Part shown: piece by piece, positions 28,231 through 31,417 of the stretch | Numbering within the stretch: the stretch's first letter is position 1 | How the letters are laid out: each line of letters opens with the position of its first letter | Assembly (NCBI RefSeq): GCF_036365525.1 | Contig: NC_090400.1 | Location: forward strand, 59,425,633-59,489,632 | From: Heterodontus francisci | Taxonomy: Eukaryota | Length of the DNA stretch: 64,000 nucleotides | Direction of reading: 5' to 3' | Position numbers and translations under genes: made by a program | The notes under the pieces: model-generated | Seen by the model: the letters and a program-made list of their open reading frames with translations, nothing else | What the model was told of the DNA's origin: nothing | Database searches by the model: none

Positions 28231-28920
28231 CATAGCAGTTCCAACATGTGAAATTTTATTGAAATTGCTTTTCCCAGTCTGCAGTGCCTGTATGCAAGTG
28301 ATAACATTTTTTGGTGGGTGAATTAATAATGACTGATTGGGATTAGAGTTGTCTCATATGCTGGCCTGTATGATTGTGTTCATCAGGTACTCTCCGTAAA
28401 GCTAGTTATGTTGCCACCTTGAAATCCGTTTTTCTGATTAGTGTAGCTCCAGTTGCAAGTCTGGCTTTAGCTTCTAATAACATTAACCTGATCCCTAAAC
28501 CCCTCCGACTTACTGCAGCTCAGTCCCTAAATAGAACCATTGTCAGAGGTCGCAATTGATTGTATAATTTATATTTCATTGCACAGTGAACCAAATTTCC
28601 CTTGCATTTGCTATTAAGTGTGTATGGTTAGTCTGCTGGCTGTCTAATCTGAACTGCAGTGAGCTGGGATTGTAGTTCCCAGTGGGAATCAGCACACTGC
28701 ATTGCCCTGAATCTGATACTGAATCACTAACTTGTTCAGAAAGCATTCATGATGGGTCATGAAAATGTCACCCAGGAGCAGTAATAGTGCTTTTCAAGGT
28801 TAGGGTTGGGCCTCATTAAGATCGCGTAGAGTTCTCCCAACTCTATCTAACCCGTGCTGTGCCTACCCTGGGAGTGTTTGGAGACAGTGTAGAGGGAGCT
28901 TTATTCTGTATCTAACCCTG

Positions 28921-29257
28921 TTTTTTTTTATTTTTGCCTTTGCATTTAACCCTTTATTATTTGGTGACGAATAAGCTGCTTCCCTGCCCGTGCTCACTGG
29001 TCCTTCAGCTCCCGTAAGCGGCGAATTGCAGATTTTACAGTAACGGCTGAGGTGGTGTTGTAGACCCAAGCCCCTCCAGCCACTGTTTTCATGCAGGATC
29101 CACAATGCCAGATACCGACCACTCTCCGCTTCATCTTAGTCTTCCCGCAGAAACAGCAGGTATATTTAGCGTGTTAGCTGATCTCGATCTTTTTCACCAT
29201 TTTACGGAGTGAGGCTCCATAGCGGGTTCCGTATTTCCCCACAATCCCCATCTTCTT
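28921..29257 (-). pseudogene. RPL37A: Processed pseudogene of 60S ribosomal protein L37a (eL43)
   Basis: Minus strand reads [86 protein letters not shown]; intronless, lacks first 5 codons, internal stop 29174-76, AATAAA 28953-58, A-tail. Confidence 0.96.
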
Positions 29258-29449
29258 GGAGTGTTTGATGGGGACAGTGTAGAGGGAGCTTTACTCTGTA
29301 TCTAACCCTGTGCTGTACCTGTCCTGGGAGTGTTTGATGGGGACAGTGTAGAGGGAGCTTTACTCTGTATCTAATCCCCGTGCTGTACCTGTCCTGGGAG
29401 TGTTTGATGGGGACAGTGTAGCGGGAGCTTAGCTCTGTATCTAACCCCG

Positions 29450-29739
29450 TTTTTTTTTAACTTTGCAAAACCTAGCTTTATTTGTCGTGTAGATACACCG
29501 ACAGTTTATGCAGTGCTGGAGGAAGCCATTGCGGCGCGTCTGGGCTTCGGGGTGGTCCCTTCACGGAATCCATTCCTGAATCTGCGATACACCACCTTCA
29601 GGTGCCTCATGCGGCCTGTACCAGTTGTGTTTCTCCTTTTGGCTTTAGTACTCCAGTTGTACTTCCTCTTTCTCTCGGCAGGGTAGGCATATTTACCACA
29701 GGTCGATTTCTGCAGGTGAAATGCTTTGGCCCCACACCG
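29450..29739 (-). pseudogene. RPL37: 5'-truncated processed pseudogene of 60S ribosomal protein L37 (eL37)
   Basis: Minus strand reads [77 protein letters not shown]; intronless, AATAAA 29477-82, A-tail. Confidence 0.96.
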
Positions 29740-31417
29740 TGCTGTACCTGTCCTGGGGAGTGTTTGATGGGGACAGTGTAGAGGGAGCTTAACTCTCTAT
29801 CTAACCCAGTGCTGTACCTGTCCTGGGAGTGGGAATTTCAGTGGGCAAAATATGCCTATTTAAGGAAAGAATTATATTTCACCGTGAGAAAATGTTATCT
29901 AGTCTTGAATGTAAGCCTGAATGTGTTTCCCAGGATTTCCACAGTGCCTTTTCCTGACTCTCCTGAAAGGGAGAGCTTGGCCTGGCACTACTTTCGGCAA
30001 AATATCTAAACCTGCAGTAGACAGGCCTCTGGTCCTGAAAGCGAAGATCTGGATTTATATGGGACCTTAACCCAAAACAATCCAAACCTTGTTGGATGGA
30101 GAATTCCTTTGCTCTGTGGTCACTGTTATGTAAGTGAGATCCCACAAACAGCAACACATCAGTTGATCTCTTTTGCTCTTCCTTGGTGATGTGGTTGAGG
30201 GACAAATATTTGGGTAGTGGGAGAACTCCCTACTTCTCTTTGAATCATGTCACATAATCTTTACTTCCCACTGACGGATCCTGGATTTACTGTCCAATCT
30301 GAAGGATGATTGGAGTTCTTTGGGTACAGTGTTTTTCCGTGAATTCAGTAGCTATAAATATTTCCTTTGTACCTGGTTGACCTTGCAGTATCGCGATGCT
30401 GTCACAAACTCCTGCAGCTTAAGGATCACTCCTTACGACCAGCTGTGCACCGACCATATTCCAATACTGTGGAATCCCACTGGATTATAAGTACTTTCTG
30501 CTTTCCGAGTCGCTTATCTTTTCTTTCTCACCTGATGGCACCCTGCCGTTGCTGGGGTGCCTTTTCATGGGGACCAGCCCTGACCCAAGAGGCTATTCTT
30601 TGGATCTAGCTGTTGAAGCTCAGTCCAGTGCTATCTTGCCCAGTGCTTCCACTTGCATGCACCGGTGCTTGCCCAAAGATTGAACTTTCTGATGTATTTT
30701 GATGTGGGTAATGTATTTACTGAGGCTTTGGGGAAGTTGGCTATATAATATTGATATCTTGCAGGTTATGAGCAGCTCCTGCTGGCTAGCTAACGTCAAC
30801 CATGGATTTGGGGGCAGCGCTCTCTTTCCCGTCTGTCAGAAGCCCCACTCCAGAGACTTGAGTACATAAGCCAGGTTGACACTCCCAGCACCAGTACTGA
30901 GGGACTGCTGCATTATAGGAGGCACTGTCCTTAGGATGAGATGTTAAACCGAGATCCCGTCTGCCCTGTCAGTTGGAAATAAAAATAAATTCTGTGGCAG
31001 CATTTAAAGAATAGGGGAGTTCTTCCTGGTGTCCTGACCAATGTTTATCCAACAACCAAAATCACAAACAGATAATCTGGTCATTATCACATTGGTGTTC
31101 ATGGGAGCTTGCTGTGCACAAATTGGTTGCCACATTTCCTAATTACAACAGTGATTTCAAAAAGTACTTCATTTGCTGTAAAGCACTTTGGGACATTCTG
31201 AAATAGCAAAAGACGCTACAGAAATAAGAGTTATTTTTTTCTTTAGCCCAATGCAAAATATCAGTCTTGTTGCGTGGTCTATTGACCTCTGAATGTTTCT
31301 GTACAAGGCAGTGGTGTGTGTGCTGGGGAGCCCAGGAATCTTAAGTCAAAGTAGAGACTGCATAAAGCACTTAAACTTTTACTTTTGTCTTCCCCATCTT
31401 TCTGTTTGACACTGCAG

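Follow-up and report, generated by a model that had tools for sequence, protein, structure and literature searches.

A Tx1-clade retrotransposon as the probable source of mRNA copies at one fixed site of a 69-bp repeat in a shark genome

Results

Features of the analysed window

The window, i.e. the whole stretch of 64,000 nucleotides of Heterodontus francisci DNA that was analysed (G000:C30:59425633-59489632; assembly size 6.01 Gb), contains a Tx1-clade LINE, arrays of a 69-bp repeat and two ribosomal-protein retrocopies lying within the repeat:

21161..21621, forward strand: 6.4 repeat units, then an A-tail (21603-21621) that abuts the Tx1 5' end
21622..27542, forward strand: Tx1-clade LINE, full-length but broken; endonuclease frame 23823-24689, A-tail 27534-27542
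27543..28230, forward strand: five stacked repeat segments with A-tracts between them; all start at the fixed site and end at differing unit positions
28841..28920, reverse strand: 69-bp repeat, 1.2 units; starts at the fixed site, CAGGGTTAG
28921..29259, reverse strand: RPL37A retrocopy; AATAAA 28953-28958, A-tail 28921-28935
29260..29449, reverse strand: 69-bp repeat, 2.8 units (190 bp); starts at the fixed site, CGGGGTTAG, and ends at about unit position 50-52
29450..29739, reverse strand: RPL37 retrocopy, 5'-truncated; AATAAA 29477-29482, A9 tail 29450-29458
29740..29831, reverse strand: 69-bp repeat, about 1.4 units, 5' of the RPL37 insert

Read on the minus strand from 29831 to 28841, the insert pair consists of repeat, RPL37 cDNA with A9, CGGGGTTAGATAC, repeat, RPL37A cDNA with its A-tail, CAGGGTTAG and repeat. 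The preliminary description of two intronless ribosomal-protein cDNAs with AATAAA and A-tails, about 190 bp apart in one orientation, was borne out by this structure, by the Pfam matches (PF01907 and PF01780, confirming both proteins) and by the parent genes. The parent genes carry introns and lie elsewhere (RPL37 exons at L049/L046/L051 on C36, RPL37A exons at L056/L059 on C7), the identity being 97.4-99.2%. Both inserts are built as processed pseudogenes: they lack the introns and, where the mRNA ends, carry a poly(A) signal followed by an A-tail. The description of both as 5'-truncated applied to RPL37, which lacks about 18 codons and is open through to the stop; the truncation of RPL37A, which has one premature stop, was slight (only about 3 codons). 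RNA contigs from two organisms (the RNA status of the runs is presumed) continued past the 5' truncation points of both copies, running on into the parent mRNAs rather than the 69-bp repeat and lacking the premature stop of the RPL37A copy.

The 5' junctions of both inserts had 3-5 bases of microhomology, and the CGG at 29737-29739 is compatible with both the repeat and the RPL37 mRNA. No target-site duplication was found at either insert: RPL37 is joined bluntly with 3-base microhomology, and at RPL37A about 17-19 bases of the unit are lost. Joins of this kind are described for Tx1 passengers in the text of PMC4494074. None of the insert-repeat junctions of the window was bridged by 31 bases on both sides among the read contigs listed, so these junctions rest on the assembly and on many independent loci, not on reads.

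The window also contains other minisatellites (40046-40703, 44 bp; 53150-53767, 33 bp; 19581-19875, 34 bp; 59134-59267, 21 bp) and reverse-transcriptase fragments from other LINEs (1037-2002 and 51037-51822). The Rfam search of the window gave no match.

Insertion site in the 69-bp repeat

The A-tails of the window are joined to C[AG]GGGTTAG of the repeat, and the junction behind the Tx1 3' end at 27542 (CAGGGTTAGACAC) was the same, as had been noticed before. In the numbering used here, position 0 is the C of CGGGG. The pattern A7+CRGGGTTAGATACAG had 3,254 matches genome-wide, the reversed-pattern control none, and the antisense check (T7+N+site) also none genome-wide. An exact 20-mer of the unit matched 28,878 times, which is a lower bound on the unit number. 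The loci analysed came for the most part from the first four contigs and from five abundant genes. In loci not selected by junction pattern, 64 of the 68 A-tract-to-repeat junctions were at positions 67-3, a 6-of-69 window. Insertion at random offsets, the outcome that would have contradicted the earlier claim, was not what this sample gave, and the orientation was strict. An earlier set from the first 26 loci, partly overlapping the 68 junctions and including tandemly amplified copies in L002, had all 39 non-central junctions in that phase.

The sequence 5' of the tail was determined for 93 pattern junctions (84 loci, C1-C4): 39 had a Tx1 3' end there and another 39 had repeat, while 3 carried a piece classed as Tx1 5' end and 12 some other sequence. 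The target of insertion also includes the 5' end of the Tx1 element itself. Among the matches listed on C1-C3, 60/74 were no more than 20 Mb from a contig end, against an expectation of 16%. An A-tail joined to telomere repeats was not found (0 matches; telomeres are possibly under-assembled), and telomere targeting was rejected. The earlier naming of the target as a satellite stood insofar as a 69-bp tandem repeat is hit at one site; the arrays, however, are short, dispersed and partly element-built.

The repeat was also detected in organism B (run X5) and organism C (run X16), and the system may accordingly occur widely in sharks. The summed repeat depth of organism C was far above that of X1, depth not being equal to copy number.

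Tx1-clade element

The endonuclease-frame search gave 20,337 candidates; of the 136 scored, 97 had an open frame of at least 1250 aa, and several scored copies stood in tandem, about 7 kb apart. The retrotransposon is apparently still active. The intact copy L126 encodes an ORF1 of 681 aa and an ORF2 of 1252 aa with predicted APE endonuclease (PF03372, 13-233) and reverse transcriptase (PF00078, 518-769) domains. The window copy is about 88% identical to L126 and starts with the target-like CGGGGGTTGGCT. The best database match of ORF2 was Xenopus Tx1 (1348 bits, 50% identity over 99%), and a separate search against human L1 ORF2p gave E 3e-79 and 270 bits; by these pairwise scores, ORF2 is nearer Tx1 than L1 proper and the element is assigned to the Tx1 clade. 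Close database pieces of its protein were from sharks and rays. ORF1 has a CX2CX4HX4C motif in the 681-aa open frame and no Pfam match; its Atlas look-alikes at 0.91-0.94, zf-CCHC and ZCCHC3-type domains, serve as a lead only.

All 20 intact copies picked by the endonuclease domain terminated in an A-tail, with no LTR. In 19 of the 20 the tail was followed by repeat at position 67-1, the exception, L127, being off-site; by the threshold of PMC4494074, more than 20% of flanks in one sequence type, the family is thus target-specific. In 17 of 19 further 5' stretches, the element began with a motif like CACGGG-ATTGGCT, preceded by zero to about five units, and this motif itself serves as an insertion site. 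By eye, no target duplications were seen around full-length elements with 19 paired ends (two 5' ends were beyond the stretch).

At least five different 5' UTRs were found on near-identical ORF1/ORF2 (L146-L164; window 21622 and 61671). All begin with the ATTGGCT motif in register with the repeat, which looks like promoter swapping. Inverted repeat pieces beside forward arrays, 5' of a Tx1-like 5' end (L010; window 61500-61673), may be twin-priming inversions.

Retrocopy census of ribosomal-protein genes

On-site retrocopies of five ribosomal-protein genes amounted to 12/42 (95% interval 17-44%), and to 8/38 (11-36%) when the four seed copies were excluded. The enrichment at the site was more than 800-fold even when 500,000 units were assumed, and the enrichment on which the preliminary description depended thus persisted in the five-gene sample after removal of the seeds. 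For RPL37, removal of three exons of the parent gene, one duplicated exon and two double hits left 15 copies out of 21 matches, with 4 on-site; one more (L042) has its 5' end alone in the repeat. RPL37A gave 8 matches, 2 of them exons, i.e. 6 copies with 1 on-site, and RPS27 8 matches, 2 exons and 6 copies with 2 on-site. RPS28 gave 12 matches including 1 exon and 1 duplicate pair, resulting in 10 copies with 3 on-site. The 14 matches of RPS26 represent 5 copies, 2 of them on-site (2 parent exons were excluded, 2 matches on C6 dropped, and 6 on C17 counted as one; 2 of these were examined and had the same flanks). RPS27 was the only gene chosen without a seed example. Only the best candidates are scored in such searches, and old retrocopies are therefore under-counted.

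The 5' ends differed among on-site copies of one gene, which indicates separate events, and in 3 of the 12 on-site copies the tail meets the 5' motif of the element, not the unit. The remaining 30 of the 42 retrocopies were off-site, two of them (L032, L052) with L1-like duplications. Duplications were also met in the census: six copies of one RPS26 retrocopy at C17:68.94-69.18 Mb (G000), spaced by about 45-50 kb, form a large tandem segmental duplication, and a duplicated single RPL37 exon with intron flanks (L048, C36:41629775) lies about 46 kb from the gene.

5' junctions of the inserts

The 12 on-site 5' junctions were at unit positions 50-52, 60, 62, 64, 66, 68 (four), 0 and 2 (two), which places all of them between about -19 and +3 relative to the nick. 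Among non-repeat inserts in general, 23/29 joined within positions 60-15, a 25-base window (p=3e-6), with 9 at 12-15. Such narrow 5' junctions fit insertion into a pre-existing target. They also fit three modes of joining: blunt, with a short loss (up to about 19 bases) or with a duplication (13-16 bases). Units on either side of a non-repeat insert differed about as much as those taken from separate loci (mean 4.5 vs 4.8, n=12). This counts against insertion into an existing target, since a stronger likeness would be expected from one split array.

No informative empty site was obtained from 83 composites of the genome's own loci, and no empty allele was found in the contigs of the sequencing runs, which were dominated by repeat. 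Runs X1 and X8 are one sample, possibly the assembly source, and the organism C run matched short flank pieces only.

Captured RNAs

AATAAA or ATTAAA near the tail was found in 5/17 non-Tx1 array inserts, of which 3 were ribosomal copies. Since the other 12 had no canonical poly(A) signal, the captured RNAs are not only mature mRNAs; the signal-less inserts may come from oligo-adenylated or internally primed RNAs. This amends the earlier statement that abundant poly(A) RNAs are captured. Besides ribosomal-protein mRNAs, the inserts comprised short fragments and a SINE-like element (L074). The latter, labelled by eye, is complete, has its own short-repeat tail and an A-tail, and lies at the site with its 5' junction at position 14.

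Stacked repeat segments and 3' transduction

The arrays were often stacks of partial units that start at the site and end in an A-tail. The partial unit before the A-tail was identical to the following unit in 0/34 informative cases, and in 15 more the downstream piece was shorter than the upstream one; the interpretation of partial units as target duplications was rejected. Segments across an A-tail differ like units of separate loci (mean distance 5.05 vs 3.0 within arrays, p=0.003), and of 93 segments enclosed between two A-tracts, 37 follow directly on a Tx1 tail. Tails started at unit positions 30-55 in 61/110 cases vs 41 expected, downstream of AGTAAA (15-20), a hexamer known as a weak poly(A) signal. 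AGTAAA was intact in 63/65 tailed partial units vs 338/368 units overall, and at this near-equal frequency its role as a signal here is no more than suggested.

3' transduction is known for mammalian L1. The corresponding arrangement, i.e. element end, flank and second A-tail in one duplication, was found in 4 of the 13 ends where repeat with an A-tail meets unique DNA, with a 12-15-bp duplication at the truncated Tx1 5' edge (L026, L028, L029, L091; 0-1 mismatch in 12). The four consist of Tx1 end, A-tail, repeat piece and A-tail and had landed at non-repeat sites, and in L029 one duplication encloses three repeat segments and four tails. These four show single insertion events that took the repeat to a new site; by 3' transduction, then, the element carries its target along, and it would appear to multiply its landing pads in this way. 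For the other 9 ends, a search of 1.5 kb or of the examined stretch gave no duplication. Numerous arrays pass into unique DNA with no A-tail at the border, and do so at scattered positions; the model proposed below does not account for them. The stacks of L091-L093 were rejected as proof of a shared transduced stack, the identical stacks being segmental duplicates.

Within L028, an intron-containing tRNA (2813-2907, minus strand; Rfam RF00005, Ile-TAT-like by eye) is fused to a truncated Tx1 5' end. The tRNA was missed by ARAGORN and detected by Rfam. Both pieces lie within one 12-bp target duplication and resemble a template-switch chimera of the U6/L1 type. In L002 (C1:9681244-9682100), a partial unit with its A-tail (about 46 bp) has multiplied to form a tandem repeat of its own, and a similar 142-bp doubling is present at 27543-27826 of the window.

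Discussion

The mechanism that we consider likely is that a Tx1-clade element nicks the 69-bp repeat, copies cellular RNAs primed on their poly(A) tails, and spreads the repeat by read-through transduction. The Tx1 ORF2p would nick the bottom strand of the repeat at CAGCA^C[AG]GGGTTAG, or at the look-alike at its own 5' end; the proposed preferred cleavage site is written CAGCA^CGGGGTTAG. Reverse transcription would be primed on the poly(A) tail of the RNA and would not require the element's own 3' sequence, so that mRNAs, SINE RNA and other adenylated RNAs could be copied to the site. The 5' end would then be joined to the upstream repeat bluntly, with a duplication of at most about 16 bases, or with a loss of at most about 19. 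The site would survive the insertion and be reused, giving stacks and head-to-tail elements. Transcripts would pass the element's tail into the downstream repeat and be re-adenylated mostly 10-35 bases after AGTAAA, and their reinsertion, sometimes at non-repeat sites, would carry the repeat to new places. We infer that ORF2p reads the A-tail alone and that AGTAAA directs the second tail. Judged from the sequences, the enzyme behind the on-site mRNA copies would be the Tx1 ORF2p. The earlier proposal that such an enzyme deposits poly(A) RNAs in its target agrees with the phase, the orientation and the enrichment; it does not cover the 30 of 42 retrocopies that lie elsewhere.

The fixed phase and orientation would be accounted for equally by template jumping without a DNA target, in which the reverse transcriptase copies repeat or element RNA as far as its fixed 5' end (C[AG]GGG...) and then switches to the poly(A) end of another RNA, so that repeat-insert-repeat chains arise from one reaction and land anywhere. 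The motif common to the element's 5' end and the site would agree with this, as would the independent origin of segments across A-tails and the units flanking non-repeat inserts, which are not especially alike; the tRNA-Tx1 fusion in one target duplication demonstrates that the machinery does switch templates. Template jumping predicts, however, a return at any unit position, and the confinement of all 12 on-site junctions has a chance of about 1e-6. Moreover, the 9/29 junctions at +12 to +15 match the 12-15-bp off-site duplications, and tandem full-length copies about 7 kb apart would demand very long single reactions. We therefore regard template jumping as improbable.

Still less probable is that the retrocopies are the work of some other enzyme, from a host L1 or from a second Tx1-like family, the repeat being a favoured substrate that the present Tx1 shares with it. 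The L1-like duplications of the off-site L032 and L052 could be read in this way, as could L044, in which the end of a different LINE lies 9 bases 5' of the site. The site is, however, G-rich, unlike the L1 insertion motif TT|AAAA, and the junctions match the present Tx1 family to the base. For the whale shark, PMC8455134 reports the absence of full LINE1 and the presence of Tx1-like repeats. In L044 itself, the A-tail of the different LINE lies 5' of the RPL37 copy at unit position about 60 and possibly represents a second family with its own site. That an assembly artefact or DNA-level recombination joined A-tracts to the repeat is hardly credible: repeat arrays are difficult to assemble and the window junctions were unbridged in the read contigs listed, but thousands of junctions share one phase and orientation, introns are removed, tails are at mRNA ends, and target duplications and independent truncations are present.

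Our judgement is evenly divided on the wider reading of the Tx1 mechanism, i.e. that the enzyme is strict on DNA and loose on RNA, that the repeat family is largely the element's product in a self-seeding system, and that about a fifth of recent shark retrocopies are in such arrays. As part of self-seeding, the 69-bp repeat is perhaps the element's promoter.

The closest known system is the crocodilian Tx1-Mar/SINEU, in which, as presented in PMC4494074 (Kojima 2015), Tx1 families prefer a target and poly(A) passengers at the same target are taken to be mobilised in trans. Duplications, truncations or blunt joins and tandem insertions are reported there as in the shark. The passengers of that system are SINE families that stem from U1/U2 snRNA, and an old Mariner transposon serves as their target, whereas in the shark one-off copies of protein-coding mRNAs and other RNAs are found in a 69-bp repeat hit at one base; the shark element is also young and moves its own target. 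Satellite-targeting Tx1 families appear in a figure legend of the same paper, and its introduction gives Tx1D as the target of Xenopus Tx1. The Xenopus laevis element (Tx1L; database name YTX2), the best database match, is likewise site-specific, but its target differs from the shark repeat, and no report of mRNA copies at its site was found in the literature. Tx1-1_ACar, presented in PMC10088271 as a telomere-specific Tx1 of the green anole, is also a vertebrate Tx1-clade element, and the shark site holds a telomere-like core, GGGTTAG; no shark A-tail joined to telomere repeats was, however, found in the assembly. The named families Keno, Kibi, Koshi, Dewa, Mutsu, Tx1-Mar and Tx1-1_ACar have as targets an RNA gene, a microsatellite, the Mariner element or the telomere repeat. 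The shark family is set apart from them by its 69-bp unit, and Repbase may already name it. The literature searched, to which Repbase and most subscription journals did not belong, yielded no description of the repeat or of this Tx1 family, and no account of mRNAs copied into the site of a Tx1 element or of a Tx1 element that disperses the sequence it targets.

With mammalian L1, as characterised in PMC3747384 and PMC4176376, the shark element shares what looks like recognition of the poly(A) tail alone, 5' ends truncated at microhomology and 12-15-bp duplications. Successive A-tails left by read-through transcripts are likewise common to both. L1, however, lands quasi-randomly, whereas about a fifth to a quarter of the sampled shark retrocopies are at one base and the transduced flank is the target. 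R2 and SART1 are listed as stringent in PMC4176376, and TRE5-A is stated in PMC3159450 to make no processed pseudogenes. In the VGP retrocopy survey (bioRxiv 10.64898/2026.06.26.734816), CR1 or Tx1 are reported to sustain retrocopy formation outside mammals, with 14,081 retrocopies in cartilaginous fishes. The evidence in its main text, in which 'target site', 'satellite' and 'shark' do not occur, is a correlation with element content.

Through a footprint exact to the base, the present data would link the processed pseudogenes of a shark with one enzyme family, the published Tx1 case found, as far as its main text goes, being a correlation. They also suggest how a dispersed tandem repeat could spread, and the arrays would be a dated record of germline adenylated RNAs. 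The site-specific elements studied so far, as represented in the sources cited, mostly need their own 3' end, and the shark Tx1 appears to combine a fixed site with poly(A)-only recognition, which is the combination wanted for RNA-templated gene insertion. Because many natural copies have open frames, the shark system is directly testable. If the wider reading given above is true, the ORF2p would by nature write arbitrary mRNAs into a specific site.
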